NCBI RefSeq assembly: GCF_001677475.2
Contig: NZ_CP015229.1
Reading direction: 5' to 3' (one strand)
Source of the DNA: Escherichia coli
GTDB taxonomy: Bacteria; Pseudomonadota; Gammaproteobacteria; Enterobacterales; Enterobacteriaceae
DNA length: 64,000 bases
Part shown: in pieces, positions 2,782 through 56,438 of the stretch
How positions within the stretch are numbered: the first letter of the stretch is position 1
How the letters are laid out: each line of letters starts with the position of its first letter
Translations under genes and position numbers: made by a program
Notes under the pieces: generated by a model
The model's database searches: none
The model's input: the letters and a program-made list of their open reading frames with translations, nothing else
Told to the model about the DNA's origin: nothing

Positions 2782-2783
2782 AA

Positions 2784-4748: not shown

Positions 4749-4925
4749 GGCGTACTTTCTCTGCTGTAATGGTATGGGCGTTTTTGTGCACACAAATCCG
4801 GCAGTGACACAAGGTGAACTATTAAATAGAGGGGGCGTGAAAGGGGCAAATTATTAATAGGGTGAAAAAATAATTAAATTATTAAAGGGTGAGGTATCAG
4901 GCATCGTCATAAAACATTGCACGAA

Positions 4926-5013
<88 letters not shown>

Positions 5014-5134
5014 TCTAACTCATTGTTTAAACTAAAATAATATTTTTATTATCGTTTAATTCAAACTTATTAAGCCTGCCGGTGATACGCTTCAGAACAT
5101 CCTGATTATTGTCGCTACTTATATCGTTCACCCT

Positions 5135-6121
5135 ATGTCTGAACTTATTGCAACTGCCGCTTCCAGCATTAACGCTTTTACTCTGGCAAAGCGTGTCGCC
5201 GCATTTAACGTGCCGGTGCTCATTCAGGGCGAAACCGGCGCGGGCAAAGAATGCGTGGCGAAATATATTCACACCGTAGCCTTTGGTGAAAATGATAACG
5301 CGCCCTATATCGGCGTGAACTGCGCGGCGATCCCGGAAAACATGCTGGAAGCTACATTATTTGGCTACGACAAAGGCGCATTTACCGGCGCAATTGCCAG
5401 CGTGCCAGGCAAAATGGAACTGGCAAATAACGGCACCTTATTGCTCGATGAAATTGGCGATATGCCGCTGGCATTACAGGCCAAAATATTACGCGTATTG
5501 CAGGAACAGCAGGTTGAGCGATTAGGCAGCAACCGACAAATTAAACTCAATTTTCGCCTGATTGCCTGCACCAATAAAAACCTTGAACAGGAAGTCGCTG
5601 CCGGGCGTTTTCGTGAAGATCTCTATTATCGTCTGGCGGTTATTCCTATTACCATGCCGCCGCTGCGTGAACGTTTGAACGATATTATTCCGCTGGCAGA
5701 GTCATTTATAAAAAAATACTCCACGGTGCTGGTGAAAAATATCACCCTTTCGGAATCTACCCGCCGTGCGCTGCTGAATTACCGCTGGCCGGGTAATGTG
5801 CGCCAGCTGGAAAACGCCATTCAGCGGGGAATGATTTTAAATCGCGACGGCGTGATTTACCCGGACGCGTTAGGCCTGCCGGAAAATGACATTGCCGACC
5901 ACAGCGAACTGCAATGGCCCATTCAGCCCTCCGTATCTGTTGCGGAAACCAGCGATTTAGGCCAGGCCGGACGTAGCGCCCAGTATCAATATATCGCCGA
6001 CCTGATGCGTAAATATCAGGGCAACCGCAGCAAAATTGCCGACCTGTTAGGCATTACCCCGCGCGCACTGCGCTATCGACTGGCCTCCATGCGCAAGCAC
6101 GGTATTGAAGTTTTCTCCTGA
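5135..6121 (+). CDS. lafK: Sigma-54-dependent transcriptional activator LafK (AAA+ domain plus C-terminal HTH, no N-terminal receiver domain)
   Basis: Walker A GETGAGKE, GAFTGA motif (KGAFTGA), C-terminal Fis-type HTH. Confidence 0.85.
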   Translation: MSELIATAASSINAFTLAKRVAAFNVPVLIQGETGAGKECVAKYIHTVAFGENDNAPYIGVNCAAIPENMLEATLFGYDKGAFTGAIASVPGKMELANNGTLLLDEIGDMPLALQAKILRVLQEQQVERLGSNRQIKLNFRLIACTNKNLEQEVAAGRFREDLYYRLAVIPITMPPLRERLNDIIPLAESFIKKYSTVLVKNITLSESTRRALLNYRWPGNVRQLENAIQRGMILNRDGVIYPDALGLPENDIADHSELQWPIQPSVSVAETSDLGQAGRSAQYQYIADLMRKYQGNRSKIADLLGITPRALRYRLASMRKHGIEVFS

Positions 6122-6135
6122 CCCGGAAGTTAAAA

Positions 6136-6477
6136 ATGAGCATTACTACAATCAACAGCACCATGCAGGCGCAAATCATGCAGGACGTGCAGCGGATGCA
6201 GGCCAACGCCCAGGCGCCGGTGCTTCCCGCCATGACCTTCAGTTCCACCGACCCGGACGTTTCGTTTAACCGCATTATGAGCGGCGCGTTCAGTCACGTT
6301 GACCAGTTCCAGCAGGTGGCGGAGCAGCAGCAAACGGCTATCGACACGGGCAAAAGTGATGACCTCGCCGGGGCGATGATCGCCAGCCAGCAGGCGTCGC
6401 TCTCGTTCTCCGCGCTGGTGCAGGTGCGCAACAAAATCGCCACCGGATTTAACGATCTGATGAGTATGTCGATCTAA
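6136..6477 (+). CDS. lfiE: Flagellar hook-basal body protein FliE homolog
   Basis: 113 aa, FliE-like C-terminus, precedes fliF homolog. Confidence 0.75.
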   Translation: MSITTINSTMQAQIMQDVQRMQANAQAPVLPAMTFSSTDPDVSFNRIMSGAFSHVDQFQQVAEQQQTAIDTGKSDDLAGAMIASQQASLSFSALVQVRNKIATGFNDLMSMSI

Positions 6478-6481
6478 CCCT

Positions 6482-8128
6482 ATGAATGCACAAATAAAGA
6501 AGTTAACCCAGGCGTTTCCGGCGTTTCGACTGCGTCTCGCAGATAACAAACGCTGGGCGCTGATGGCGGTAGTGGGGCTTGCCGTGGCGGCAACGGCGAT
6601 TATCGTCAGCGTGCTGTGGACCGGTAATCGCGGCTACGTCTCGCTCTACGGACGCCAGGAAAATCTGCCCGTGTCGCAGATTGTCACCGTGCTGGATGGC
6701 GAAAAGCTCAGCTACCGCATCGACCCGCAAAGCGGGCAGATTCTGGTGCCGGAAGATGAACTGTCGAAAACGCGCATGACCCTTGCTGCCAAAGGCGTGC
6801 AGGCGATATTGCCCAGCGGCTACGAGCTGATGGACAAAGACGAAGTGCTCGGCAGCAGCCAGTTCGTGCAGAACGTGCGCTACAAACGCAGCCTCGAAGG
6901 GGAGCTGGCGCAGAGCATCATGTCGCTGGACGCGGTGGAGAGCGCGCGGGTGCATCTGGCGCTCAACGAAGAAAGCTCGTTTGTGGTCAGCGATGAGCCG
7001 CAAAACAGTGCCTCGGTGGTGGTGCGTCTGCACTACGGCGCGAAGCTGAATATGGACCAGGTGAACGCCATTGTGCATCTGGTTTCCGGCAGCATTCCGG
7101 GGCTGCACGCCAGCAAAGTTAGCGTCGTCGATCAGGCGGGAAATCTGCTAACCGACGGCATTGGCGCGGGCGAGGCGGTTTCTGCCGCTACCCGTAAACG
7201 CGATCAGATTCTCAAAGACATCCAGGACAAAACCCGCGCCAGCGTGGCAAACGTGCTGGATTCGCTGGTCGGCAGCGGGAATTACCGCGTCAGCGTGATG
7301 CCGGATCTCGACCTCAGCACCATCGACGAAACCCAGGAACACTACGGCGACGCGCCGAAAATCAACCGCGAAGAGAGCGTGCTGGACAGCGACACTAACC
7401 AGGTGGCGATGGGCGTGCCCGGTTCGCTCAGTAACCGTCCGCCGGTTGCGGCGAATCAGATGACCAACGGTACGGAAGAAAACCGCTCGCCGGAAGCGTT
7501 ATCCAAACACAGCGAAAGCAAGCGCGATTACTCTTACGACCGCAGCGTCCAGCATATTCAGCATCCCGGGTTTGCGGTGAAACGCCTCAACGTGGCGGTG
7601 GTGCTCAATCAAAACGCCCCGGCGCTGAAAAACTGGAAGCCGGAGCAGACTGCGCAACTGACCGCGTTGCTGAACAATGCCGCCGGGATCGACGTCCAGC
7701 GCGGTGACAATCTCACCTTATCGCTGCTTAACTTTGTGCCGCAGGCGGTGCCGGTCGAACCAATTATTCCGCTGTGGAAAGACGACAGCGTGCTGGCCTG
7801 GGTGCGGCTGATTGGCTGCGGCCTGCTGGCGCTGTTGTTGCTGTTCTTTGTGGTGCGCCCGGTAATGAAACGCCTGACGGCGGTACGTGCGCCGGTTATC
7901 CCGCCAGAACCGGAAGCCGTCAGCGAACCGTGGATCGCCATGCCGGAAGAGGAGCGCAAAAACGTCGATCTGCCGTCGCTACCCGGCGATGACAGCCTGC
8001 CGTCCCAGAGTTCCGGCCTCGAAGTAAAACTCGAGTTCCTGCAAAAACTGGCCATGAGCGACACCGATCGCGTAGCCGAAGTTCTCAGACAATGGATCAC
8101 CAGCAATGAGCGAATTGACAACAAATAA
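6482..8128 (+). CDS. lfiF: Flagellar MS-ring protein FliF homolog
   Basis: 548 aa, N-terminal TM, large periplasmic domain, C-terminal TM. Confidence 0.85.
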   Translation: MNAQIKKLTQAFPAFRLRLADNKRWALMAVVGLAVAATAIIVSVLWTGNRGYVSLYGRQENLPVSQIVTVLDGEKLSYRIDPQSGQILVPEDELSKTRMTLAAKGVQAILPSGYELMDKDEVLGSSQFVQNVRYKRSLEGELAQSIMSLDAVESARVHLALNEESSFVVSDEPQNSASVVVRLHYGAKLNMDQVNAIVHLVSGSIPGLHASKVSVVDQAGNLLTDGIGAGEAVSAATRKRDQILKDIQDKTRASVANVLDSLVGSGNYRVSVMPDLDLSTIDETQEHYGDAPKINREESVLDSDTNQVAMGVPGSLSNRPPVAANQMTNGTEENRSPEALSKHSESKRDYSYDRSVQHIQHPGFAVKRLNVAVVLNQNAPALKNWKPEQTAQLTALLNNAAGIDVQRGDNLTLSLLNFVPQAVPVEPIIPLWKDDSVLAWVRLIGCGLLALLLLFFVVRPVMKRLTAVRAPVIPPEPEAVSEPWIAMPEEERKNVDLPSLPGDDSLPSQSSGLEVKLEFLQKLAMSDTDRVAEVLRQWITSNERIDNK

Positions 8129-9116
8129 AAGCAACAGCTACCTGGAACAGGCGGCGATCCTGCTGCTGTGTCTGGGCGAAGAGGCGGCGGCGACGGTGAT
8201 GCAAAAACTCAGCCGCGAAGAAGTGGTGCGCCTGAGCGAAAACATGGCGCGGCTTTCCGGCGTCAAAACCAGCATGGCGCGCAAAGTGATCAATAACTTC
8301 TTTGATGAGTTCCGCGAACAGAGCGGCATCAACGGCGCATCGCGATCCATGTTGCAGGGCATTCTCAACAAAGCCCTCGGCACCGAGATCGCCAGCAGCG
8401 TGATCAACGGCATCTACGGCGATGAGATCCGCTCACGGATGGCGCGTCTGCAATGGGTGGAACCACGCCAGCTGGCGATGCTGATCTCCGAAGAGCATCT
8501 GCAATTGCAGGCAGTGTTCCTCGCGTTTCTGACACCGGAAATCTCGGCGGCGGTGCTTTCATATCTCAACGAATCGGTACAAAACGAAATTCTCTATCGG
8601 GTGGCGAAACTCAACGACGTCAACCGCGACGTGGTGGATGAACTGGACAGGCTGATCGAACGCGGTCTGTCAGTACTTTCGGAGCACGGCTCGAAGGTGA
8701 AAGGCATCAAACAGGCGGCGGATATCGTCAACCGCTTTCAGGGCAACCAGCAGGTGATCCTCGACCAGATGCGCGAGCGTGACGAAAACGTGCTGGAGCA
8801 GCTCCAGGATGAGATGTATGACTTCTTTATCCTCAGCCGCCAGAACGAAGAGGTGCGCCGACGTCTGCTCGACGAAGTGCCGATGGAAGACTGGGCGGTG
8901 GCGCTGAAAGGTACTGAAGCTCTGCTGCGCCGTTCCATTTACGCGGTAATGCCAAAACGTCAGGCTCAGCAACTGGAAGCGATCACCGCGCGCCTGGGGC
9001 CGGTGCCGGTCAGCCGTATCGAACAGATCCGCCGCGAAATCATGGGCATTGCCCGTGAGCTGGAAGAGGCGGGCGAAATTCAGCTACAGCTTTTTGCGGA
9101 ACAGACGGCGGAGTAA
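8106..9116 (+). CDS. lfiG: Flagellar motor switch protein FliG homolog
   Basis: 336 aa FliG-like; overlaps fliF homolog end. Confidence 0.85.
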   Translation: MSELTTNKSNSYLEQAAILLLCLGEEAAATVMQKLSREEVVRLSENMARLSGVKTSMARKVINNFFDEFREQSGINGASRSMLQGILNKALGTEIASSVINGIYGDEIRSRMARLQWVEPRQLAMLISEEHLQLQAVFLAFLTPEISAAVLSYLNESVQNEILYRVAKLNDVNRDVVDELDRLIERGLSVLSEHGSKVKGIKQAADIVNRFQGNQQVILDQMRERDENVLEQLQDEMYDFFILSRQNEEVRRRLLDEVPMEDWAVALKGTEALLRRSIYAVMPKRQAQQLEAITARLGPVPVSRIEQIRREIMGIARELEEAGEIQLQLFAEQTAE

Positions 9117-9830: not shown

Positions 9831-11160
9831 TTTTTCCGCTTTCGATAACGCCCTGCGCTCGCTGGAGTCGATCCCATTAGCCCGCGTCGCCGGGCGACTG
9901 GTGCGCCTTAACGGCATCCTGCTGGAGAGCGTCGGTTGCCCGCTAATGACCGGACAACTGTGCCGCATCGAAAGCGCCAACCACACGCTGATCGACGCGC
10001 AGGCCGTGGGATTTAATCGCGACATCACCTACTTAATGCCGTTTAAACAGCCGGTCGGCTTGATGGCGGGCGCGCGCGTCTTCCCGGAGGAAAAAGCCCA
10101 CGACATCCTGATTGGCGAAAGCTGGCTAGGCCGCGTGGTGAATGGCCTCGGCGAGCCGCTGGATGGCAAAGGGCGCTTAAATGGCAGCGATCTTTTGCCG
10201 CCGCTGCCACCGTCGGTCAATCCCTTAACCCGGCGTTCAGTGGACGAACCGCTGGACGTGGGCGTGAAAGCGATCAACGGCCTGCTGACCATCGGCAAAG
10301 GCCAGCGCGTTGGGCTGATGGCGGGTAGCGGGGTGGGGAAAAGCGTACTGCTGGGGATGATCACCCGCCAGACCAAAGCCGACATCGTGGTGGTTGGGCT
10401 GATTGGCGAACGCGGGCGCGAAGTGAAAGAGTTTATCGACCATTCACTGGGCGAGGACGGGCTGGCGAAGTCCATCGTCGTTGTCGCGCCTGCCGATGAA
10501 TCGCCGCTGATGCGCCTGAAAGCCACCGAACTGTGCCACTCCATCGCCGCCTGGTTTCGCGACCGTGGGCATCACGTTTTACTGCTGGTGGATTCCCTGA
10601 CCCGCTACGCGATGGCGCAGCGTGAAATTGCCCTCTCGCTCGGCGAGCCGCCTGCCACCAAAGGCTATCCGCCATCGGCATTCGGTATGATCCCCAAACT
10701 GGTCGAAAGTGCAGGCAACAGCGAAAGCGCAGGATCGATGACCGCCATCTACACCGTGCTGGCGGAAGGCGACGACCAGCAAGATCCGATTGTAGACTGC
10801 GCCCGCGCGGTGCTGGACGGGCATATCGTATTAACCCGCAAACTGGCGGAAGCGGGGCATTATCCGGCCATTGATATCGGCCAGTCGATCAGCCGCTGTA
10901 TGAACCAGGTTACCAGCCTGGAACATCAGCAATCCGCCCGCGCGTTAAAGCAAAACTACGCCGCCTATATGGAGATCAAACCGCTGATCCCACTCGGCGG
11001 CTACGTGGCAGGCGCGGACGCCAGCGTCGATAAAGCGGTAAAAATGTACCCGACCATCGAGCGATTTTTGCGCCAGGAGATGCGCGAACCCGCCTCCCTC
11101 GAACTGGTGCAAAGCCGCCTGCAAATCCTCTTTCCTGGTGCCAAAAAGGCAGAACAGTAA
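9823..11160 (+). CDS. lfiI: Flagellum-specific ATPase FliI homolog
   Basis: Walker A GSGVGKSVLLGMI; F1/T3SS ATPase family. Confidence 0.9.
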   Translation: MSDFSAFDNALRSLESIPLARVAGRLVRLNGILLESVGCPLMTGQLCRIESANHTLIDAQAVGFNRDITYLMPFKQPVGLMAGARVFPEEKAHDILIGESWLGRVVNGLGEPLDGKGRLNGSDLLPPLPPSVNPLTRRSVDEPLDVGVKAINGLLTIGKGQRVGLMAGSGVGKSVLLGMITRQTKADIVVVGLIGERGREVKEFIDHSLGEDGLAKSIVVVAPADESPLMRLKATELCHSIAAWFRDRGHHVLLLVDSLTRYAMAQREIALSLGEPPATKGYPPSAFGMIPKLVESAGNSESAGSMTAIYTVLAEGDDQQDPIVDCARAVLDGHIVLTRKLAEAGHYPAIDIGQSISRCMNQVTSLEHQQSARALKQNYAAYMEIKPLIPLGGYVAGADASVDKAVKMYPTIERFLRQEMREPASLELVQSRLQILFPGAKKAEQ

Positions 11161-11162
11161 CT

Positions 11163-11597
11163 ATGCGACAAATCATCGACACCCTCGCGCAGTTACAGCG
11201 CCTGCGGGATAAATCGGTCAAGGACAAAACCGTCGAGCTGGCAAAACAGAAACAGATTTGCGCGGGCTATGACAACAATATCAAAGCATTAGGTTACCTG
11301 GTGGAGAAAACCTCTGCGGGCGCGGCGGCATCGGTGGAATCGCTGAAAAACGTCAGCGGCTACAAAGGCACCCTGCGCAAGGTGATCGCCTGGCAAGAGC
11401 AGGAAAAAACGCTGGCTAACATCAAAGCCACGCGAATGCAGAAAAACCTGACGGCGGCGGCCTGCGAAGAGAAAGTGGTGGCTTTGACGCTGGACGACAA
11501 ACGCCGCGAGCAACAAGAAAGCGCCACGGCGAAAGCGCAGAAAGCGGTGGACGATATCGCCGTGCAGTGCTGGTTGCGGCACAAATTAGCGGAGTAG
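11163..11597 (+). CDS. lfiJ: Flagellar export chaperone FliJ homolog
   Basis: 144 aa coiled-coil protein after fliI homolog. Confidence 0.7.
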   Translation: MRQIIDTLAQLQRLRDKSVKDKTVELAKQKQICAGYDNNIKALGYLVEKTSAGAAASVESLKNVSGYKGTLRKVIAWQEQEKTLANIKATRMQKNLTAAACEEKVVALTLDDKRREQQESATAKAQKAVDDIAVQCWLRHKLAE

Positions 11598-11599
11598 CC

Positions 11600-11995
11600 A
11601 TGAAAACGGTCATCACCTTCGGCACCTTCGATGTGTTTCATGTCGGTCATCTGCGCCTTTTACAACGCGCCCGCGCATTGGGCGAGCGGCTGCTGGTCGG
11701 CGTGTCGTCAGACGCCCTGAACATCGCCAAAAAGGGCAGAGCGCCGGTTTACCATCAGGATGAACGCATGGCGATTATCGCCGGGCTGGCGTGTGTGGAT
11801 GGCGTATTTCTTGAGGAATCGCTGGAGCAAAAAGCAGAGTATTTGCGGGGGTACAGTGCGGATATTTTGGTGATGGGTGATGACTGGGCAGGGAAGTTTG
11901 ACAGCTTTGCGTATATTTGTGAGGTGGTGTATTTCCCCCGCACGCCATCGGTGTCGACGACGGGGATTATTGATGTGATTAGGGCGCTTTTATAA
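11600..11995 (+). CDS. Cytidylyltransferase-like protein (glycerol-3-phosphate cytidylyltransferase TagD-like)
   Basis: GTFDVFHVGH (HxGH nucleotidyltransferase motif); ~131 aa; RBS ggag before ATG at 11600. Confidence 0.7.
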   Translation: MKTVITFGTFDVFHVGHLRLLQRARALGERLLVGVSSDALNIAKKGRAPVYHQDERMAIIAGLACVDGVFLEESLEQKAEYLRGYSADILVMGDDWAGKFDSFAYICEVVYFPRTPSVSTTGIIDVIRALL

Positions 11996-12022
11996 AGTGC
12001 TAACACCCAGATGTTTGTTTCT

Positions 12023-12103
12023 TGCCGGATGCGGCGTAAACGCCTTATCCAGCCTACAAGACGTGATCGATCCGTAGGCCTGATAAGCGAAGCGCATCAG
12101 GCA
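12023..12103. repeat. REP/BIME palindromic units
   Basis: gccggatgcggcgtaaacgccttatcc and inverted partner. Confidence 0.8.
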
Positions 12104-12113
12104 CTTCTGTGGT

Positions 12114-14558
12114 TTACCCCAACGCCTCCACAATCACCATTGCCGCCCGTTCCCCCGCCTTGCCATCCATAAACGCGTCGCAATAGTGATGGCGAATCTC
12201 CGCCAGCTTCGCCTGCAACGCCTTCCAGTCAAACGCCTCTGACAGCAGATAACGCAGTTCCGCCATATCGTGAGCGACGGGTAATATCGCGCGGATTCGC
12301 TGATCGGCGCTTTCAGGCGTGGAGTAGCTTTGCTCGCCATCGAGCAGTTCCGTCATGCCCGAAAAGTCGAGCAGGATCACCCGCTTATCAACGTGGATAG
12401 CATCGAAAATAAAGCCGCTGTTATCGGTGAGCACGTAATCGGCCTTTGCCAGTAGCGCCAGCGTGTGACGGGCGGAGTCGGTGCGCTGTTTTAAATGTCT
12501 GCGCGCCAGGGCCAGCGACGCCGCTTCTTCCGGGCGCGCGCAGGTGCCGTGGTGCAGTTTGCAAATCAGGTTCACATCACCGCTTAAGCGCCCCAATTTT
12601 TCTGCCCAGTGGGGCAGGGAGCTTAATGTGCCAAACGTGGGGGCGTAGAGCACCGTAGTTTTACGAAAATCGGGTTGGATATTTTCCGGCAACGAACGAT
12701 CGAAAGTGCCGTTATGCCAGGTGTCGAAGCGCGGGTTGCCAACCACTTTTGCATTGCCGAAATGTTCCAGCGCCTGCTGGCTGTAGTGGCTGTAACACAA
12801 AATGCGCTGATAAAAACGGTTCCAGTCGGCATGGTTCCACGTCTCTTTGGCTAAGCCGTACATGGCGCGGATGTTCACGGGGGAAAGGCCATTGAGCGCA
12901 GGCGTGTGGTAGGGGCTGACCAGGCATTTCACCCGCTGACCGTGTGCCTGCATTTCAGATAAGCGCATACCTTTAAGCTGCGGATCGACGATACTTTTTA
13001 GCGTCGCCAGCATTTCATCAAGAAACGGTTTAAACACGCGGTCGTTGATCACCAGCGTGCAACTCTGCCCCTGCGCCTGTAGGGATGTGATGATGGGGCG
13101 GTACAGCGCGTAGTGAAAGGAGGTTTCCATAAAAAAGCCGATGGTGTCGGCGATGGGTAACGCGGATGGCGTTGTGGCTACGGGCAATTTATTGAAAAAG
13201 TGACTAATATTATCAGTCACTTTTTGCTCGATATCACTAAAGCCCGGTCGCTGGTAACAAAGGCTCGGATAACAGGCCAGCCATTTGTCGGCGCGTAGCA
13301 GCGACTGCCAACACTCTTCAAGTGAGTGCTCATCGTTGCTCATCTGCTGCGCCAGTTGCGGGTAGTAGCGGCTGTTCACCAGATAAGCGCACACTTTGCG
13401 GCAGTCCCGCGCGTGCACCAGCCCCGGCAAACTTTTTAGCATCGTTCCCTGCGAAATTTCGCCGCCAAGGATCATCACCTGCCAGGGAATTTTCGCCAGG
13501 CTGGCCAGCAGAGTGTTCAGCACCTGAATATGTTTCTCCTGCTTGAGAATGACCGCGTCATCTTCCAGTAAAAGGTAGTTTTGCCAGCCCTGCCGTTGCG
13601 CCAGGCGCAGCGCCTGCAAGTGTGACTGCTGGCGGCCCCGTTGACCGTTTTCATCTTCGCAGGCGGCAAGGCGGGTGATCTTCTCAGGCGGAATATGCAG
13701 CAAAGCCAGTTCTTCACGGATCTGTTGTAAGCGATCCGGGCGTTTATCCAGATTCAGCAGAACGATCTGATCGATCACCTGATGGTTGATCGCCTGATGA
13801 TGAGTGGCGTTATGCAGACTCAGATAAGCATTGCGGAGCAGCGGATCGCGGACGATATCCGTAAGCGTCGCGTTTACTGGCGTGCTGGCCCCGAGAATAA
13901 AGTCTTTATCAAAGGTGTTGTGGCTGTGCGAGATACACAGAATCGTGCGCTCACCGGGCAGTTGTAGCGGGTTAACGCTGAAGTTATCGGTGAAACTTTT
14001 CTCTTCACCTAAATTGCAATCGTCATCGTAGCGGTGCTTTTTCAGGTAGTTACGGTGATAGCAAAAGGTGCCGTTGAGGATGTTATGCGAGCCAAAGCAG
14101 CGGCTTTTGAAAATGCGGTTGATATGGCTGTACCAGATGGGGATCTGGTCGGAACCGGAGATGAGCGCCCGGTGTTTTTGCATCATGGCGATGGTGTACG
14201 AGATTTTATCTGCCGGGTAGTAGTCGTCATCGTCCATGCAGAGGATGTATTCGCCGCGCGCCAGTTCGTTGAGCATATTACGTTTTTTGCCCAGCGGCAG
14301 TTTTTCCGGGTGATGGATGTAGCGGATATTGAAGGACTCCGGCTTGCCATTGGTCAGGCGGTCGATGATGTGTTGATGGCTTTGCGGGGAGTCGTCGAGG
14401 ATGACCAGTTCGCGGCGGTCTGCCGGGTAGTCCTGATAGCGGTACATATAGAGCAGGTACAGCAGGAATGCGCCGCGATTCCAGGTTGGCGTGACGACGC
14501 TGACAAATGGTTTTTCGCGGTGGGTGGCGAGTGTTTTGATGATGGTTGGTGTTGGCAT
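12114..14558 (-). CDS. Multidomain glycosyltransferase (GT2-like N-term, GT25-like middle, CDP-glycerol glycerophosphotransferase TagF-like C-term)
   Basis: DDDDYY (DxD) near N-term; LLEDDAV middle; VLYAPTFG (TagF-family LYAPTWR-like) C-term; start set to internal ATG 14556-14558 because upstream extension reads into a GC-rich repeat. Confidence 0.7.
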   Translation of the reverse strand: MPTPTIIKTLATHREKPFVSVVTPTWNRGAFLLYLLYMYRYQDYPADRRELVILDDSPQSHQHIIDRLTNGKPESFNIRYIHHPEKLPLGKKRNMLNELARGEYILCMDDDDYYPADKISYTIAMMQKHRALISGSDQIPIWYSHINRIFKSRCFGSHNILNGTFCYHRNYLKKHRYDDDCNLGEEKSFTDNFSVNPLQLPGERTILCISHSHNTFDKDFILGASTPVNATLTDIVRDPLLRNAYLSLHNATHHQAINHQVIDQIVLLNLDKRPDRLQQIREELALLHIPPEKITRLAACEDENGQRGRQQSHLQALRLAQRQGWQNYLLLEDDAVILKQEKHIQVLNTLLASLAKIPWQVMILGGEISQGTMLKSLPGLVHARDCRKVCAYLVNSRYYPQLAQQMSNDEHSLEECWQSLLRADKWLACYPSLCYQRPGFSDIEQKVTDNISHFFNKLPVATTPSALPIADTIGFFMETSFHYALYRPIITSLQAQGQSCTLVINDRVFKPFLDEMLATLKSIVDPQLKGMRLSEMQAHGQRVKCLVSPYHTPALNGLSPVNIRAMYGLAKETWNHADWNRFYQRILCYSHYSQQALEHFGNAKVVGNPRFDTWHNGTFDRSLPENIQPDFRKTTVLYAPTFGTLSSLPHWAEKLGRLSGDVNLICKLHHGTCARPEEAASLALARRHLKQRTDSARHTLALLAKADYVLTDNSGFIFDAIHVDKRVILLDFSGMTELLDGEQSYSTPESADQRIRAILPVAHDMAELRYLLSEAFDWKALQAKLAEIRHHYCDAFMDGKAGERAAMVIVEALG

Positions 14559-48664: not shown

Positions 48665-48740
48665 GCCGATATAGCTCAGTTGGTAGAGCAGCGCATTCGT
48701 AATGCGAAGGTCGTAGGTTCGACTCCTATTATCGGCACCA
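48665..48740 (+). tRNA. thrW: tRNA-Thr (anticodon CGU)
   Basis: gccgatatagctcagttggtagagcagcgcattcgtaatgcgaaggtcgtaggttcgactcctattatcggcacca; cloverleaf with CGT anticodon and CCA end. Confidence 0.95.
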
Positions 48741-48754
48741 TTTAAATCAATAAG

Positions 48755-48960
48755 TTACACATCATTAGTACCTTCCTTATTTCTTGACTGGGACAAATTT
48801 GGGACCGATGGGTTCAGAATCGAGTCTATTTGCCGTGCGTGTTCGGTAAGGTGATTAGGTGCGAGGTGAGCATATCGACGAACCATTTCAAGAGTTTCCC
48901 ATCCTCCCATTTCTGTAAGTGCAAGAAGAGAAACACTGGACTGAACCAGCCTGCTTGCCT
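48755..48960 (-). pseudogene. Tyrosine recombinase/integrase remnant (C-terminal fragment only)
   Basis: ORF encodes ...[36 protein letters not shown] (integrase C-terminus with catalytic Tyr) but lacks upstream catalytic domain; abuts thrW 3' end. Confidence 0.7.
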
Positions 48961-49103
48961 TTGCTATCAAAGTACCTTGAGGACCAGATGATTTCTGGCG
49001 ATATTTACAGCGCGTCCGCAATGAGTTTTTCTCCGTGCCGCCAGTGACGTTCCCCGCTTTTTCAGTGCGGCGATAATATCAGCGGGATGCCAGTCCTGTT
49101 GTG

Positions 49104-49574
49104 TCATACAACCACCTCGCTGATAAATTTTACGCCGTCGGCGGTGCGCAGCCAGCGCGGGGCTTTGAGTCCTTCCATGAAATACCAGACCAGTTCACAC
49201 AACAGCCCGGTCAGGGTTTGTTCCGTTTTTGGTTCCGCCGGGCGTTCCAGCAGAAGCTGGAGTAGTGCGAGGCAGTATTCGCACAAGGAATCTGGTTCGG
49301 AAATAAAGTGCTCTGGTGTGGCGGGAAGGGTATCAACGGTCAGGCTTTCAATCAGATGCGGCGGGATGGGGTCGTGCAGCGTGGGGTGCAATAGCGCAAG
49401 AGCCGCGTGAAGCCGTCCGCAGAGCGCTAGCCGTAGCGCGGGATCGTCGGTTTCGATCAGGGTTTCGGCGAAGCGGGCGCAGTAATCGGCAAGGACAGTA
49501 AAATCCGTGGTGGCATTGAAGGGGGCGGACAGCAGATCGAGTAAATCGCAGTCAGGGGTGAGGGTTGTAGCCAT
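49104..49574 (-). CDS. Hypothetical protein (island-encoded, unknown function)
   Basis: 156 aa from ATG 49572-49574 with upstream aggag RBS; no recognisable motif. Confidence 0.5.
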   Translation of the reverse strand: MATTLTPDCDLLDLLSAPFNATTDFTVLADYCARFAETLIETDDPALRLALCGRLHAALALLHPTLHDPIPPHLIESLTVDTLPATPEHFISEPDSLCEYCLALLQLLLERPAEPKTEQTLTGLLCELVWYFMEGLKAPRWLRTADGVKFISEVVV

Positions 49575-49917
49575 AGGGCGTCTCCTGTAACGGTTTATTA
49601 TGTCCGCCACTAGAGAGGCTAATCTCATGGGGGGCGGAACCGGACGGGGTTAGCCTTACCGGCGTTACAGGAAACCGGCGCGTCTTGCGACGCCCCCGCC
49701 CGGCCCGCCATTGAGGTGTAGCCGAACGCACGACACAAAAAAGACGCTGGTGCGTCAAGTGTCGCCTGTAACGGTTTTCAGGAGGCTAATCCCGACGCCT
49801 GATTTTGCAGGCGCGGGAGAAAGATACTGCGATTGGTCATGAGTGGCAAGGGCTACATCCTGTTTACCGACATCTCACGCAAAAATACCCTGATTATTAA
49901 TAGCGAAAATCAGTTTC

Positions 49918-52900
49918 TTATTTTGGCGGTAGCTTTTTGCGGTTCTTTGCCAATTGGAATCCTTCAGGTAACGGTTTGAATTTATCGCCGCCTTTAGGCC
50001 AGCGTTTTGCCCTGCTCTGAAATGCCCTTAACGAGTCGATATCCAGTGTTGCAGCGATCACAAAGTCATTATCGCCGCCCTTCACACGAGCAATATCACG
50101 CATAAAGGGTTCTTTTGCCGGGGAACGTACGCGACTATCGCCGTATTTTCGGTTATTCACTAAAATGGTATAGGCATGAATATCCAGCGCTGCTGATTCA
50201 ATCAACGATGCAAACGTATCCAGATCTTTATTCCAGCTCAATACCATTAATGCATCGAGCGCGCCCTGAAAACGGATCCTCGCTTTACTATTCTGGAGTT
50301 CAGAGCAAATCATAACGCCAAAATTGACGCCGTGATGAATATATACCGGCTTACGTTGTTTAACATTAAGTGTCGAGTCCCAAGACTTACCATAAGTTGA
50401 AAATAATGCCTCATCTTCACCTACGGCGGGTTCCAGCTTGGGTTGCCATATTTTGACACTCGCTGGATAGCCGAGTCTGTTATCTGAAAGGACAAGTACG
50501 GCCTCACTCTTCAGTTGATTATCGCCTAAGTGGCGGTATTCTGTTCCCGCAATTAGACTGATACCCGCCGAACTCAAACGATCAGCAATACTGTTAACCC
50601 AGCGTAACGGGATTGAAAGCTCGGGGAATAAAACATAATCAGGTTTAGGAGATAGTTTCAATGTTGCATTAACCAGTTCAGAAATCCGCTGGTACCTTGA
50701 ACGGGACAAGTTAGATTTATTGCAGGCCATTTTAGCCCAGTCGTCTTCCTCTGTTTTAATGCTGGTTAGCGCAACGACAATTTTATGTTTCCTGTCAGTG
50801 CCAATATGAATGAATTTCTTAGGCCGAGCTTTTTTTGTCGCTTCATCTGAGTCCTGCTCCGATGCTAGTAACGTCGGTTTGATCCATACACCGCGTAATG
50901 CTTGAGTATATTTTGCCCAAACGGTGGACGGTCTCTCATCTGGTTTTTTGTCGGATGTAGAGGGTAATCCAACACATTCGGGGGCCAGTTCTGATATTTC
51001 AGCGGGAGTTAAAGGACGTGTAGGGAAAATGTAAGGTAGGTAACTTTCGTTCTTACGATTTCCTTTAGCCACTTTTTCCAGTCGGGTATTCTTGGTTGAT
51101 TTCAAAAATAGCTTAATAACGTCAATATCAATAAGCGATGAGTCCCTCATTAATTTCAGTATTTTAACTTCTTTTTTACGATCACGCTGATTAACAAGTT
51201 TTTCTGCCGACTGACTCTTTACGATCTGTTTATAAGGTTCCTTTGCTAAATCAGCTCGAGCTACCAATGGCGCTTTTAAATAAAAATCTGCTGAATCAAA
51301 GCGAAGATCCAGTAAATCCTTTAGATTTGTCAGACTTTGTGAAATATGATTAAAAAATGTATCCGCAAGGCACTCTTCTTTCTTTGAACGTTTATCAAGA
51401 AATAATCTGTCAGGACTGTAATATCGTGTCGCTGCATCAACAAATAGCCAGCTTAATGTGCCTTTTATACAGCGCCAAAGATCATTTACTGCTCGAGTTT
51501 TGCAACCATTTATAGTCACTTCCTTACCTGAAGTAATCACCGATGCCAACAGGTTGATGGACTCGTAAGCTTTAAGTACAATTTTTTCCGCGTGCTGCCA
51601 TTCATTCATACTGATAGCAAAGCCAAGCAGCCTTGGCAGATAACTAAAATGTGCAAATAGATTATCAGCCCTAAGAATATGGTTGTAGGCAAACTGATAA
51701 AACTCTTCCCGCTGTTCTTTCCATTCACTTGGAGACAGATCTCGTGCCAGTGTTTCAACGTAGCGTAATTGCAGTGACCAGCCCAAACGACGAATGGTTA
51801 ATCCATCCGCACGGCGCAGAGTATCGGCATTTTCACCTACACTACCGGCAGCGGAAAGGACTTTAGCTGCGGTGGAGTGTTCCAGTTGATCCGGTGAAGG
51901 CATCAAGCGGTGTTCACTAGAAAGCTCGTAGATCTCCTTTTCGATACTGTCGAGCAGATCTATTCCTGCCCTCCCTTGAAGCACGAAAAGTTTTTGCTTA
52001 TCGGATTGTAACTGGATGGTGGTCTTACCCTGGAAATGCTCGCCCTGCTGTATTTGCCATATTTGTTTTTTCTCGTTTTTCAGATAAACGCAATCATTGC
52101 CAAGCCTATCTTGCAGCAATAACATAAATTCGTGATTATTAGTAATTTTACCTGTATCGCGTATTACAAGGAACATATCATCGACATAACGACCGTAGTG
52201 AATTGGCGACAGTTTTTCAATGACTAATTTATCCCAATGGTGTAGCAATATATTGGAAATGATCCGACTGGCTGTTAATCCAATGACCAGACCACCATTA
52301 ATAACAGGTGTTTTGTACGCTATTTTTTTTCCAAATGCCGCTGCGCCGTCAGACCAGTGCTTTAAGAATACAGCTAACTGTGCAGTAAACGCTTTTTCAT
52401 GCTCAGTCAGTTTTATGTTTAGTGTGTTATAGAGATCATCAGAGGTTATAGCCAGTGGATCAATAAAATGATAGTAACTTTTTAAATCCAGTGAGGCGGC
52501 GATAATGTCACGATCTTTTTCCAACTCGTCACGTATAGCTTTTAAGCCATCACCACGCCATTTTTGGTAGGGCTGGAAATAGGGGCTAAAAGAACCCACG
52601 GCACTGATATGGAATGGATTATCCTGCTCATTGCTAAATAATTCATCATTACGAATACGTTTTAGCCGCGCGCCATAACAACAGTTGTCTAAGCTGGCAT
52701 CAAATTTATGCCCGACCATATTAATCCATAGTGCAGAGATAATGTGACTATCAACCGGGAAGTCACCAATAATACGAAACTCTGGTATCAGATCAAAATT
52801 ATTAAATAAATGGTCGGCTGCTCGTTTAGGATTAGAAAAGTGGACGTGTCCATTTTGGAATTCATGTTTTTTCTTTGTGGTTAATTTTTTCGGTAACAAA

Positions 52901-53127
52901 CGAAATTTGCCAATCAACTTCTTATTGCTACTGAATCCATCTTCGCTCTGCAAAATATCTAAGAGTTCTTGCAGGTTTTCAATTAATTCCTGCTCATACT
53001 CGGCAAATTTGATAGCAACAGGAAATGTATTCTCAAAGAAGCTATCGGCTTTGGCTTTCCGGTAAGCGACCAGAAGGTCTTCAATCGTCAGATCATCCCA
53101 GCCAGTGAAAGTTGCCTGATATGTCAT
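49918..53127 (-). CDS. Reverse transcriptase-nitrilase fusion protein (UG/Abi-type defence-associated RT architecture)
   Basis: 1069 aa; RT motifs LDLKSYYHFIDP, GGLVIGLTASRIISNILL, YGRYVDDMF; C-terminal CN-hydrolase signatures FPELSIP and GVMICSELQN; low-GC gene. Confidence 0.75.
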   Translation of the reverse strand: MTYQATFTGWDDLTIEDLLVAYRKAKADSFFENTFPVAIKFAEYEQELIENLQELLDILQSEDGFSSNKKLIGKFRLLPKKLTTKKKHEFQNGHVHFSNPKRAADHLFNNFDLIPEFRIIGDFPVDSHIISALWINMVGHKFDASLDNCCYGARLKRIRNDELFSNEQDNPFHISAVGSFSPYFQPYQKWRGDGLKAIRDELEKDRDIIAASLDLKSYYHFIDPLAITSDDLYNTLNIKLTEHEKAFTAQLAVFLKHWSDGAAAFGKKIAYKTPVINGGLVIGLTASRIISNILLHHWDKLVIEKLSPIHYGRYVDDMFLVIRDTGKITNNHEFMLLLQDRLGNDCVYLKNEKKQIWQIQQGEHFQGKTTIQLQSDKQKLFVLQGRAGIDLLDSIEKEIYELSSEHRLMPSPDQLEHSTAAKVLSAAGSVGENADTLRRADGLTIRRLGWSLQLRYVETLARDLSPSEWKEQREEFYQFAYNHILRADNLFAHFSYLPRLLGFAISMNEWQHAEKIVLKAYESINLLASVITSGKEVTINGCKTRAVNDLWRCIKGTLSWLFVDAATRYYSPDRLFLDKRSKKEECLADTFFNHISQSLTNLKDLLDLRFDSADFYLKAPLVARADLAKEPYKQIVKSQSAEKLVNQRDRKKEVKILKLMRDSSLIDIDVIKLFLKSTKNTRLEKVAKGNRKNESYLPYIFPTRPLTPAEISELAPECVGLPSTSDKKPDERPSTVWAKYTQALRGVWIKPTLLASEQDSDEATKKARPKKFIHIGTDRKHKIVVALTSIKTEEDDWAKMACNKSNLSRSRYQRISELVNATLKLSPKPDYVLFPELSIPLRWVNSIADRLSSAGISLIAGTEYRHLGDNQLKSEAVLVLSDNRLGYPASVKIWQPKLEPAVGEDEALFSTYGKSWDSTLNVKQRKPVYIHHGVNFGVMICSELQNSKARIRFQGALDALMVLSWNKDLDTFASLIESAALDIHAYTILVNNRKYGDSRVRSPAKEPFMRDIARVKGGDNDFVIAATLDIDSLRAFQSRAKRWPKGGDKFKPLPEGFQLAKNRKKLPPK

Positions 53128-53330
53128 GCGTTATCGTCCTTAGATTAAAGTCTGTACAGAATTAGCCAGCCGTTTCATGCCCGAAGGAGGTGCTCTTGAC
53201 ACCAGTAATCCATCAGTGAGGCTGGCAATAATTTTGATTTGTATCCATGTTACACGCTCCCCGCAACCAGTCCGAGCATATATTTGTCACATTTTTCCCG
53301 AAAGTGATTAAGTTTGAATTTTTTGTTTAA

Positions 53331-53349
53331 TGTCGATTTTTAGTCGACA
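53331..53349. promoter_or_regulatory. Inverted repeat tgtcga-N7-tcgaca in divergent promoter region (candidate operator)
   Basis: Palindrome ~75 bp upstream of AbiEi-like gene; AbiEi antitoxins autoregulate via promoter inverted repeats. Confidence 0.35.
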
Positions 53350-53422
53350 AAATGAGGAATAAGTAAATTATTTCTTGCTGTGGCGTATCCCTGAACCTAC
53401 ACTGGTTTAAATATTTGTACTA

Positions 53423-54226
53423 ATGTCTATTCAGGGGCGACATTTGCCAAATTATCTAAACTGGCTGATGCAGAATACGCTACCCGGTCAGGTGCTGCTC
53501 CAGTCATGGCTTACCCGCAACGGCGTAGATCGTAAGCTCTCTTACCTCTATGTCCAGAATGGCTGGCTCAGGCGGATCGCTCACGGCGTATACTGCCGGA
53601 CGGGTCGTGAACCGGACTGGGTGGACGCGGTTTACTGCCTGCAAACACAGTGGGAAAAGCCAGTACGGGTGGCGGGGCTAACCAGCCTTGCGCTTCAGGG
53701 CCATGCGCACTATACCGAACCGGGTAAGCCGCAAATCTGGCTCGCGCTTCCGGCTTACGTCAAACTGCCGGGATGGTTTGCTGCCTTCGAACAATCTGCA
53801 ACATTTATCACGCTGTATACATCGGGCCTTACCGTTGATGTCACGTCATTTACTACGGAACTGAAAATTGGCGACCGGCAGTTAGCAGGCAGTGCCCCGG
53901 AACTGGCCGCGTATGAGATCGCCTGCGGCGTTCCTTCGTTGATATCGTTCGAACATGCCGATGCTCTGTTTCAGGGGATGAATCTTCTCAGCCCGCGTAA
54001 ATTGCAGGCGTTACTCTGCGCCAGTCATTCGGTTAAAACCAACCGGGTGATGCTTTACCTTGCCCGGCGTAATGGACACCCTTATTTTCAGTATATTGAT
54101 CAAAGCGGTATAGAAACAGGTACGGGAAAGCGGCAAATCATACCCGGCGGCTGGCTGGAGCCGGATTATCAAATTACTGTTCCACGCGAATTTAAACCGG
54201 AAGGAGTCGAAGATGGATCTGCGTGA
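53423..54226 (+). CDS. AbiEi-like antitoxin / transcriptional regulator (type IV TA)
   Basis: 267 aa; N-terminal AbiEi-type wHTH-like region (LTRNGVDRKLSYLYVQNGWLRRIAHGVYCRTG); overlaps downstream NTase gene by 14 bp. Confidence 0.6.
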   Translation: MSIQGRHLPNYLNWLMQNTLPGQVLLQSWLTRNGVDRKLSYLYVQNGWLRRIAHGVYCRTGREPDWVDAVYCLQTQWEKPVRVAGLTSLALQGHAHYTEPGKPQIWLALPAYVKLPGWFAAFEQSATFITLYTSGLTVDVTSFTTELKIGDRQLAGSAPELAAYEIACGVPSLISFEHADALFQGMNLLSPRKLQALLCASHSVKTNRVMLYLARRNGHPYFQYIDQSGIETGTGKRQIIPGGWLEPDYQITVPREFKPEGVEDGSA

Positions 54227-55133
54227 TAGCTATACCCGGCAGGTCAAACTGTTGATGGCCGCTCTGCCGCATGTGGCGAAGGAGTCCTGTTTCGCGTTGA
54301 AAGGCGGCACGGCAATCAATTTGTTTGTGCAGGATTTTCCCCGTCTGTCGGTGGATATCGATCTGGCGTATAAGACTTTTGCGGATCGCGATACCGATTT
54401 GACGGCGATCAACGACGCTTTGAAGAGAATTACTGCATCGCTGAACAGTAAACCGGGGATTACCGCGATTCGGCAGGAAAATAAAACGGATGAAAAGCGC
54501 ATCATTGTGAATACGGCTGATGCCCAGATTAAGATCGAGGTTAGTCCGGTCTGGCGTGGGCTGTTGTTGCCTCCGGCAGAAATGTCGGTGTGCGAACGTG
54601 TGGAAATGGAGTATGGCTTCACCACTATGAGTGTCGTTTCGCTGGCGGATCTTTATGGCGGTAAAATCTGCGCAGCGCTTGATCGTCAGCACCCGCGCGA
54701 TCTGTTTGATGTGCTGAATATGCTGGAGAAACCGGGACTGATGCGGGAGATCTTTGACGGTTTTCTTTGTTATCTGGCAGGCCATCCCCGCCCCATTGCC
54801 GAGTTGCTGGCCCCAAACTGGGATACAGAGCGGATCACGACGCTGTATGCCCAGGAATTTTCGGGGATGACTCAGCAGGAAACGTCGCTGGAATCGCTGC
54901 TGTCAGTAACGACTTTGCTGCCGCAGGCGTTGAAGTCACATCTTACGGATCTGGATCGCGAGTTCTTGCTCAGTTTTAAGCAAAACAGCCCTGACTGGTC
55001 GCGGTATCGCTATCCTGAAATTCAGCATCTTCCGGCTATTCGCTGGAAGCAACGCAATCTGGCGGTGCTTAAAGATAAAAATCCGGCGAAGTATGTGGCG
55101 GCGGTGAATAAGCTAGAGAGGGTGCTGGAGTAA
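54213..55133 (+). CDS. AbiEii-like nucleotidyltransferase toxin (DUF1814-type)
   Basis: 306 aa; NTase motif LKGGTAINLF ... RLSVDIDLAY (hGG...DhD). Confidence 0.65.
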   Translation: MDLRDSYTRQVKLLMAALPHVAKESCFALKGGTAINLFVQDFPRLSVDIDLAYKTFADRDTDLTAINDALKRITASLNSKPGITAIRQENKTDEKRIIVNTADAQIKIEVSPVWRGLLLPPAEMSVCERVEMEYGFTTMSVVSLADLYGGKICAALDRQHPRDLFDVLNMLEKPGLMREIFDGFLCYLAGHPRPIAELLAPNWDTERITTLYAQEFSGMTQQETSLESLLSVTTLLPQALKSHLTDLDREFLLSFKQNSPDWSRYRYPEIQHLPAIRWKQRNLAVLKDKNPAKYVAAVNKLERVLE

Positions 55134-55538
55134 TATTCTTAGCGCTGTTCAGGGACTCTGAATTGGGCCATGATGCTTTGGTTATATGAATAACTTCGTG
55201 GCCATAACTCAAACATATTCATTTAATTCAATACATAGCACCATCGAGTAAGAGATCGCTGAGTCATTAGACGATCTCTGCTCGTGGAAATACGAAACTA
55301 TCTCTTTCCAAAGCTGATCTGAATAACATTATCTGGAGCATCATTATTAGACCTGATGATCTCATGCTCAATAAAATCCCCCCATTTCAAAAAAAGATCC
55401 CGTAATTTTTCCGCCTGCTGCCCGACCTGATAAGTTCTGATTAATCTGTCTTTCGGAACATGATTCAACAGAAGTTCTATAAGCCGTTCTGGCGCATCCA
55501 GATACTCAGCACAGCCTGTAGAGTGCAGGTGCAGACAT

Positions 55539-56438
55539 TTAAGCCAATTGCTGCCGCCATTCCTTGACGTGGTCAATCAGGGCGCGGAGCTTTGGTGCAA
55601 TATTGCGACGCTGTGGGAAATACAGATAGAAGCCCGGAAATTGTGGAAGAAAGTCATCAAGCAGCGATACAAGCTTACCGCTTTCAATATATGGCCTGAA
55701 CGTTTCCTGAGTGGCAATTGTTATTCCTCCGCCGGCAAGAGCCAGCCTCAACATCAGACGCAGATCATTCGTCGTAATCTGCGGTTCAATCGCAAGGTCG
55801 AAAGCTCTACCGTTTTCTTCAAATGGCCAGCGATAAGGAGCAACCTCCGGGGACTGACGCCAGCCGATACACTTATGATTCACAAGTTCACGCGGGTGAA
55901 CAGGTGTGCTGTTGGCTGCGAGATAGGAGGGAGAGGCAACGACCATTTCACGCTGCCTGGCGGTAAGGGGAACAGCAATCATGTCTTTTTCAATGACCTC
56001 TCCGAGCCTTACGCCAGCATCGTAACCTGCGGCAACGATATCGAATTCCTCATCCGTGACAACAATATCAAGCGTAACGGCTGGATTGGCAGCTGCAAAC
56101 GAAGCGATTAGCGGACCTGAAAGAAATTCTTCTGCTATCGACGTCACCGCGATTCTGAGATGTCCACGTGGTACATGGTCAGAAACCATCTCTTCGAACG
56201 CTGCCTCAATACCGGATAAAGGTAATGACAACGATTTATGCAGCCGTTCTCCCGCTTCCGTCAAATTAACTGAGCGCGTGGTCCGCATTACAAGCATTGT
56301 CCCGAATGCATCTTCAAGGCGTCTTATTCCCTGACTGACCGCTGAACGGGTAACGCCCAGTCGTGCGGCGGCTTTACTGAAATTACTCTCTTCTGCTACC
56401 GCGATAAAAATGGGTAAAAGATTAAGATCGATTTTCAT
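55539..56438 (-). CDS. LysR-family transcriptional regulator
   Basis: 299 aa; N-terminal HTH (FSKAAARLGVTRSAVSQGIRRLE) and LysR substrate-binding domain. Confidence 0.9.
   Translation of the reverse strand: MKIDLNLLPIFIAVAEESNFSKAAARLGVTRSAVSQGIRRLEDAFGTMLVMRTTRSVNLTEAGERLHKSLSLPLSGIEAAFEEMVSDHVPRGHLRIAVTSIAEEFLSGPLIASFAAANPAVTLDIVVTDEEFDIVAAGYDAGVRLGEVIEKDMIAVPLTARQREMVVASPSYLAANSTPVHPRELVNHKCIGWRQSPEVAPYRWPFEENGRAFDLAIEPQITTNDLRLMLRLALAGGGITIATQETFRPYIESGKLVSLLDDFLPQFPGFYLYFPQRRNIAPKLRALIDHVKEWRQQLA

Follow-up and report, generated by a model that had tools for sequence, protein, structure and literature searches.

Do the two overlapping genes that lie beside a reverse transcriptase (RT) gene near thrW in Escherichia coli form a toxin-antitoxin module, and does such a module stand alone or belong with its neighbour? 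We considered this question for a stretch of 64,000 nucleotides of contig NZ_CP015229.1 (assembly GCF_001677475.2), hereafter referred to as the window. A sequence-only reading of the window had proposed an AbiEi/AbiEii-like pair consisting of a winged helix-turn-helix (wHTH) antitoxin and a DUF1814 toxin, and Pfam, PADLOC, fold and gene order agree with this core claim. In our assessment the module is very probably a self-contained two-gene AbiE of the COG5340/DUF1814, MenAT-like class. The pair is real, intact and widespread, and it belongs to an already annotated family; the proposal is correct but ordinary and already known. Exactly the same proteins are present in NCBI as AbiEi antitoxin and AbiEii toxin (e.g. 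ANO87463.1 and ANO87464.1), the Prokaryotic Genome Annotation Pipeline (PGAP) annotates the pair in hundreds of RefSeq genomes, PADLOC holds near full-length subfamily models, and a survey found AbiEii in 82% of sequence type (ST) 131 and 72% of ST73 strains (PMC10790755). What is added here is a corrected start codon, two conserved operator-like sites, a MenAT4-like structural placement and the architecture of a cassette slot.

Family and fold of the two proteins

Read from the letters of the window, the two open reading frames (ORFs) are 53423-54226 (267 aa) and 54213-55133 (306 aa), both on the plus strand. They overlap by 14 bp (54213-54226), which places the toxin ATG inside abiEi, and this is the arrangement that the sequence-only reading had described. 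With the start codon favoured below, abiEi occupies 53444-54226 and its 260-aa product carries an N-terminal wHTH (approximately residues 1-70) followed by a C-terminal AbiEi_3 domain. The toxin gene abiEii (54213-55133) is preceded by a strong Shine-Dalgarno sequence (SD), GAAGGAG, at 54200-54206 and encodes a 306-aa DUF1814 nucleotidyltransferase (NTase) of the Pol-beta type.

AbiEi matched Pfam AbiEi_3_N (E-value 9.8e-29, residues 12-97) and AbiEi_3 (4.9e-34, residues 102-254), and AbiEii matched Pfam AbiEii/PF08843 (1.9e-35, residues 14-221). The profile families put forward from the letters had been AbiEi_4 and DUF1814. The second is borne out by the PF08843 match, but AbiEi reached an E-value of only 0.014 against AbiEi_4 and its family is AbiEi_3. 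PADLOC models matched both proteins almost end to end, with E-values of 7.6e-79 for AbiEi and 7.8e-117 for AbiEii (PDLC02290, profile positions 3-289 of 290). Chance cannot account for the profile matches of the pair. No NCBIfam model matched either protein; the same was true of the PHROGs families, and thus there was no sign of a phage-borne origin.

The AlphaFold2 model of AbiEi has a predicted local distance difference test score (pLDDT) of 78, with 89-96 in the N-terminal winged-helix domain, and a predicted template modelling score (pTM) of 0.53. Confidence is low at loops 77-94 and 128-142, and the overall domain arrangement is uncertain. The flexible loop 77-94 is nevertheless conserved among antitoxins, with G78 and G86 invariant. 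Foldseek placed this model with Rv2827c (1ZEL, 4e-9) and with the Streptococcus agalactiae AbiEi (6Y8Q, 2.9e-5), at a probability of 1.00 in both cases. The toxin matches the MenT4 fold and has the bi-lobed Pol-beta-like architecture of the MenT toxins, while the antitoxin is encoded directly 5' of it and joins an N-terminal wHTH to a C-terminal AbiEi_3 antitoxicity domain. As modelled, the pair as a whole is closest in structure to MenA4-MenT4.

Catalytic motifs, selection and gene pairing

DUF1814 toxins have been defined by four NTase motifs, namely hG[GS]x9-13Dh[DE]h (I), h[DE]h (II), a conserved lysine (III) and a DUF1814-specific acidic motif (IV) (PMC7450476). All four are present in AbiEii, and across 32 aligned toxin homologues (53-89% identity) their conservation is complete or no lower than 90%. 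Motif I reads G31-G32-T33...S46-V-D48-I-D50, motif II K107-I-E109, motif III G149-G150-K151 and motif IV D157-R-Q-H-P-R-D163-x-x-D166. Residues K30-G31-G32-T33, D48, D50, K107, E109, K151, D157, R158, D163 and D166 are invariant in the alignment; S46, two residues before D48, is at least 90% conserved. The two stretches from which an NTase signature had been recognised, LKGGTAINLF and SVDIDLAY, were located at residues 29-38 and 46-53 of this protein. The spacing between S46, D48, K151 and D166 (2, 103 and 15 residues) is nearly that between S67, D69, K171 and D186 of MenT4 (2, 102 and 15; MenT4 residues from PMC7450476).

The ratio of nonsynonymous to synonymous substitution rates (dN/dS), calculated pairwise against three E. 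coli alleles, Brenneria and Pectobacterium, was 0.055-0.10 for abiEi and 0.07-0.12 for abiEii. These low values indicate that both genes are maintained by purifying selection. We also scanned one genome per species and retained the best 80 loci, which span Proteobacteria, Bacteroidota, Chlorobi, Melainabacteria and Nitrospirota. An AbiEi_3-type gene was found directly 5' of the toxin in 78 of the 78 loci having an upstream region, the other 2 of the 80 being cut by a contig end.

Comparison to characterised systems

The Serratia sp. ATCC 39006 AbiE-2 system (AbiE-A2/AbiE-T2) resembles the window pair in having an AbiEi_3-type antitoxin 5' of a DUF1814 toxin, which is 305 aa long in Serratia (PMC7725324). 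In E. coli it works as a toxin-antitoxin pair: the toxin lowers viability 10^6-fold, and only the cognate antitoxin gives rescue. The toxin also perturbs tRNA pools (PMC7725324). The primer-encoded termini of the Serratia toxin (MDKHSPYY.../...LAEWIE) match a clade whose members share 53-56% identity with the window toxin, so the identity of about 55% between the two comes from these termini and not from the full sequence. The motif-I serine is S46 in both. However, the Serratia system belongs to a different clade and has a different genomic location, and its operators are not expected to be shared, given that the motif TGTC-N11-GACA described below does not extend beyond the clade in which AbiEi is at least 74% identical.

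Mycobacterium tuberculosis MenA4-MenT4 (Rv2827c-Rv2826c; 1ZEL, 6Y56) shares the S/D/K/D spacing and the antitoxin-first operon, although its sequence identity to the window pair is only 14-17% and there is no match at the level of hidden Markov models. For MenAT4, MenA4 alone was toxic, and neither phosphorylation nor a stable complex was seen (PMC7450476, PMC11375011). MenA3-MenT3 of the same species (Rv1044-Rv1045, TglT) provides the reference biochemistry, with pyrimidines added to the 3' CCA of tRNA and a phosphorylated serine in motif I, but MenT3 is a weaker structural match than MenT4, its spacing between motifs III and IV differs (K189-D211) and its identity is 11%.

The AbiE systems of S. 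agalactiae and Lactococcus lactis likewise combine a wHTH antitoxin with a DUF1814 toxin having the four NTase motifs. The prototype autoregulates via paired inverted repeats in its promoter, and its AbiEi fold (6Y8Q) was recovered with the window AbiEi as described above. In contrast to the window AbiEi, the prototype antitoxin belongs to another Pfam family, DUF4095-like rather than AbiEi_3 (PMC7725324), is 195 aa long instead of 260 aa and shares 11% identity with it; the phospho-acceptor of the prototype toxin is T65 in place of the candidate S46. An abortive-infection phenotype has been demonstrated only for the L. lactis AbiE.

Antitoxin start codon and upstream region

The antitoxin most likely starts at TTG 53444 and not at ATG 53423, the start assumed in the sequence-only reading, which would add 7 residues to the 260-aa AbiEi. 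We placed the start at 53444 because the TTG is invariant and its SD conserved, the ATG is not kept in other genera, and both the PGAP annotation and the orthologous proteins begin there, 7 codons 3' of the ATG (260-aa form). When the upstream regions of eight loci were aligned (four E. coli alleles together with Brenneria, Pectobacterium, Buttiauxella and [Enterobacter] lignolyticus), the TTG and an SD of the form AGGGG/AGGAG/AGAGG, 6-7 nt 5' of it, were kept in 8/8 loci. The ATG at 53423 was not kept outside E. coli, and most other genera have TTG at this position, within a conserved palindrome half-site. All orthologues that reach 74% identity, from five genera, share the TTG start of abiEi; remoter relatives mostly have ATG. 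The combination of a weak yet conserved antitoxin start with an overlapping operator-like palindrome hints at tuned translation.

The region 53220-53443 (plus strand) travels with the AbiE module and would hold its promoter and candidate operators. Site 1, AATGTCGATTTTTAGTCGACA, is an imperfect 21-bp palindrome at 53329-53349, the core of which is the inverted repeat TGTCGA (53331-53336)/TCGACA (53344-53349) with an N7 spacer. This repeat had already been noticed at 53331-53349, and it turns out to be one of two 21-bp sites conserved across genera. Site 2, AATGTCTATTCAGGGGCGACA, is a second copy of the 21-bp motif at 53422-53442, which overlaps the abiEi SD and ends just 5' of the TTG. The two sites are identical at 15 of 21 bases, and the 21-bp pattern, which was derived post hoc from them, matches only sites 1 and 2 in the 64 kb. 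Most of the upstream region has diverged, and conservation is strongest at site 1. Its Pectobacterium counterpart, ATGTCGATTTAAAATCGACAT, likewise lies at -113 from the TTG and is a perfect palindrome whose arms measure 10 bp. A repeat having arms of 6 bp would be weak evidence by itself, and it gains weight because of this phylogenetic footprint and the second copy.

At -20, the pattern TGTC-N11-GACA was present in 9 of the 10 loci whose AbiEi is at least 74% identical, Brenneria having a variant, and it was absent from every more distant locus. We also considered a family-wide common operator and rejected it: TGTC-N9-13-GACA was absent 5' of all loci below 74% AbiEi identity, and the motif is therefore clade-specific. 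Such a clade-limited motif is the pattern expected of an operator that co-evolves with its wHTH. Judged by conservation, we regard the two 21-bp sites as candidate AbiEi operators. A two-repeat operator has been described for the S. agalactiae AbiEi (cited in PMC7725324 and PMC7450476), and the arrangement of the two sites resembles it. TCGACA, the right arm of site 1, can also be read as a -35-like hexamer, and it forms part of the only forward sigma-70-like match, a weak one, with -35 at 53344-53349 and -10 at 53366-53371. A terminator scan gave no excess over shuffles, and the sole terminator-like hairpin lies inside abiEi.

Proposed mechanism and role

The analysis shows what the module is, that its two genes are intact and paired, and that selection maintains them; for its mechanism we infer the following from characterised relatives. 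Unrestrained AbiEii, a Pol-beta-type NTase, would add nucleotides to the 3' CCA ends of tRNAs, and this extension would block aminoacylation and translation and lead to bacteriostasis. AbiEi would neutralise the toxin through its C-terminal domain, most likely by inducing auto-phosphorylation on the motif-I serine S46, with a MenA4-like route as the alternative. AbiEi would also repress its own operon, its N-terminal wHTH binding both 21-bp sites, one over the -35-like hexamer and the other over the ribosome-binding site (RBS). The pair would work independently of the neighbouring cassette in the thrW slot, and it may pay off by defending against phage through abortive infection, by stabilising the island, or in both ways.

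These steps follow published work. MenT1 and MenT3 extend tRNA 3' CCA ends with pyrimidines (PMC7450476, PMC10435456), and MenT4 prefers GTP (PMC7450476, PMC11375011). Antitoxin-induced auto-phosphorylation of the toxin on a motif-I Ser/Thr has been described for MenAT1, MenAT3 and the S. agalactiae AbiE (PMC11375011; bioRxiv 10.64898/2026.01.19.700257). The position of S46 relative to D48 is that of MenT3 S78/D80, MenT4 S67/D69 and MenT1 T39/D41 (PMC7450476, PMC11375011), which makes it a candidate phospho-acceptor. The phosphorylation data on the S. agalactiae prototype have led to a reclassification of AbiE as type VII (bioRxiv 10.64898/2026.01.19.700257); the "type IV" given to the pair in the sequence-only reading stands as a database label but is disputed in this respect.

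Several points weigh against this reading. Searches of the PDB by sequence, with phmmer for each protein and with hmmsearch using the family profiles at E-values up to 10, returned nothing relevant, and the link to the MenT and AbiEi structures therefore had to rest on fold; for MenT it comes from fold and Pfam, not from a sequence-level PDB match. Matches in a promoter scan of the upstream region were no more numerous than in shuffles, and site 2 contains the SD, which alone could account for its conservation. In work on MenT4, the closest solved relative, phosphorylation was not seen, nor was a stable complex with MenA4 (PMC11375011). Taken with its GTP preference, this makes both the neutralisation step and the nucleotide used uncertain. 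Furthermore, the S. agalactiae AbiE expressed in E. coli protected against 0 of 32 coliphages (bioRxiv 10.64898/2026.01.19.700257), so that a role in phage defence is extrapolated from the L. lactis AbiE alone. For the subfamily of the window phage defence is assumed, and the defence-island-like neighbourhoods of its relatives (an HNH and methylase pair in Pectobacterium, a Lamassu-like cassette in Buttiauxella) are circumstantial in this regard.

Membership of the MenAT4-like branch raises the further thought, which we consider unlikely though worth stating, that the pair might use a third control mechanism. One possibility is tightly coupled transcriptional and translational autoregulation, with an operator over the RBS of an antitoxin having a weak but conserved TTG start, and another is that the C-terminal antitoxin domain is itself NTase-like. 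If a third mechanism were indeed at work, the pair would be a tractable E. coli model for the neutralisation question left open in M. tuberculosis. With this pair, the MenAT4 branch of the DUF1814 toxins, so far poorly understood, could be studied in a model native to E. coli.

The thrW island and its cassette slot

The tRNA-Thr(CGT) gene thrW was found by ARAGORN at 48665-48740 on the plus strand (Rfam tRNA, 71.8 bits), in agreement with the location given in the sequence-only reading, and the island is integrated at this gene. On both sides the island is bordered by integrase fragments (48755-49021 and 55298-55576, minus strand), and a duplicate of the thrW 3' end (a second attachment (att) copy) was sought in the window and not found. 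With the P4-type immunity RNA region described below, only integrase fragments and no second thrW 3' end, the island is, on its sequence, a decayed P4-like satellite, and the element looks immobilised. P4-like satellites are known to carry defence hotspots including UG5 RT-nitrilases (PMC9122126), and the island of the window fits this description; AbiE in P4 hotspots is not mentioned in Rousset et al. 2022 (PMC9122126) or its supplements. In ST131-type genomes, abiEii is followed by an integrase that is full length but interrupted, and by a duplicate of the thrW 3' end (10876-12195 and 12363-12613 in locus L002).

The neighbour of the pair is a single-gene, variable UG5-large RT-nitrilase cassette at 49851-53219 (minus strand), which is not part of the AbiE pair. 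Its coding sequence (49918-53127) specifies 1069 aa in which the RT is fused to a C-terminal C-N hydrolase domain, as in DRT11-like proteins, and it matched the PADLOC model RT_UG5-nitrilase over residues 2-1067 with an E-value of 0. As the sequence-only reading had it, this minus-strand gene is divergent from the plus-strand pair. The shared promoter region of approximately 290 bp which it also proposed does exist as an intergenic region of 295 bp (53128-53422) with the repeat in it, but this region is composite: 53128-53219 goes with the RT gene and 53220-53443 with AbiE. When the RT configuration was compared to the restriction-modification (R-M) configuration of an ST131-type locus, homology broke at 49850/49851 and resumed at 53220. 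It follows from these breakpoints that the RT gene brings about 92 bp of its own upstream sequence, whereas about 200 bp, with both 21-bp sites in them, stay with AbiE. The GC content of the RT gene is 41.8%, versus 52-54% for AbiE.

Among 5426 complete E. coli genomes, AbiE was present in 832 and the RT gene in 260, and in 258-259 of these 260 AbiE was immediately next door. About 570 AbiE carriers, including ST131-type genomes, share this thrW scaffold but carry a type I R-M system (hsdRMS) in place of the RT gene, as in loci L002 (slot 2705-8794) and L089. In [Enterobacter] lignolyticus (locus L086) the slot is empty (6731-6842), the homologue of window 49556-49850 being only 112 bp from the AbiE upstream region. 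No RT-nitrilase was found within 8 kb in any of the 80 species-level AbiE loci (0/80). By this distribution and these boundaries, AbiE and the RT-nitrilase are independent modules brought together in a hotspot, the RT-nitrilase being an independent cassette in a P4-like hotspot slot. The compact two-system defence island at thrW that had been read from the letters thus holds as to the site and the UG5-large RT neighbour; the two systems, however, are juxtaposed rather than linked. Approximately 15% of complete E. coli genomes, including ST131-type ones, carry an intact and selected AbiE at thrW, which is relevant to host-range prediction for phage therapy and to toxin-antitoxin inventories, although the practical value is modest.

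Could the pair then serve mainly for addiction or stabilisation, retaining the thrW island with its swappable cassette in the genome, without itself being anti-phage? We consider this possible but doubtful. AbiE is the constant partner of a slot whose content varies between an RT-nitrilase, a type I R-M system and no cassette at all, and the pair has been kept under purifying selection in the above genomes even though the working integrase and the second att copy are lost. Dy et al. reportedly observed in 2014 that plasmids are stabilised by the S. agalactiae AbiE, and the failure of that system against the tested coliphages points the same way. Nevertheless, the AbiE of L. lactis is a classical case of abortive infection, relatives of the pair adjoin defence genes, which is the usual signature of a defence gene, and stabilisation and defence are not mutually exclusive.

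That the pair is instead an inactive, decaying remnant carried in a dead P4-like island appears highly improbable to us. The degraded surroundings, with integrase fragments and no second att copy, would suit it, and so would the truncated toxin variants (175-260 aa) of some E. coli strains; but both ORFs of the window are full length, all catalytic motifs are intact, dN/dS is low with synonymous divergence (dS) of up to 0.25 among E. coli alleles, and conservation across genera extends to the SDs, the TTG start and the operator-like sites.

Finally, AbiE and the RT-nitrilase might be one coupled three-gene system, in which the RT product or the nitrilase could trigger or modulate the toxin via the shared divergent promoter region, and for this there speak the near-constant adjacency in E. 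coli RT carriers and the AbiEii-like gene that an unrelated Sinorhizobium meliloti UG5-large RT also has nearby (bioRxiv 10.64898/2025.12.16.694600), but we hold it to be scarcely credible in view of the many E. coli genomes that pair AbiE with hsdRMS and lack the RT gene, the absence of the RT-nitrilase from the species-level loci, the boundaries and GC content of the RT cassette itself, the empty slot in [Enterobacter] lignolyticus, and the finding that a UG5-large RT alone suffices for defence in S. meliloti (same preprint). Functional linkage is rejected on distribution and largely refuted, and the S. meliloti adjacency is best read as defence-island clustering. We therefore retain the self-contained two-gene AbiE module.

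The dS among the E. coli AbiE alleles (L001, L002 and L003) is 0.04-0.25, and the adjoining RT gene is 98.3-98.6% identical at the nucleotide level across the carriers listed. The sequences suggest that the AbiE alleles are old or recombining and that the RT cassette has spread recently.

Other features of the slot

The RT-nitrilase of the window has no downstream transmembrane partner: the distance from its stop to the next annotated ORF is 159 bp, and the interval from the stop (49918) to the C4/isrK RNA region contains no ORF of 50 aa or more. It thereby resembles the minimal DRT11 architecture of S. meliloti, unlike the E. coli E101 system, in which the RT-nitrilase is accompanied by a protein with one transmembrane segment (1TM). 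The S. meliloti UG5-large RT, which has no transmembrane partner, defends alone (bioRxiv 10.64898/2025.12.16.694600), and hence the RT cassette of the window may be complete.

The left breakpoint of the slot, 49850/49851, recurs across configurations. The left border is formed by a P4-type immunity RNA region at 49627-49827 (minus strand), consisting of a C4 antisense RNA (49627-49715, 73.7 bits) and isrK (49737-49814, 68 bits), both above the Rfam gathering threshold, and a c4-a1b1 target (49775-49827, 43.8 bits), just below it; all are on the minus strand. An ORF annotated by PGAP as "ash family protein" (window 49552-49827, minus strand) overlies these three matches, and, on the strength of the RNA matches, 49552-49827 is probably a P4-type immunity RNA locus and not a protein gene. 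The C4/isrK segment of about 300 bp is 79-85% identical in [Enterobacter] lignolyticus and Buttiauxella, and in Buttiauxella the Lamassu-like cassette lies to the right of this same C4/isrK-like segment.

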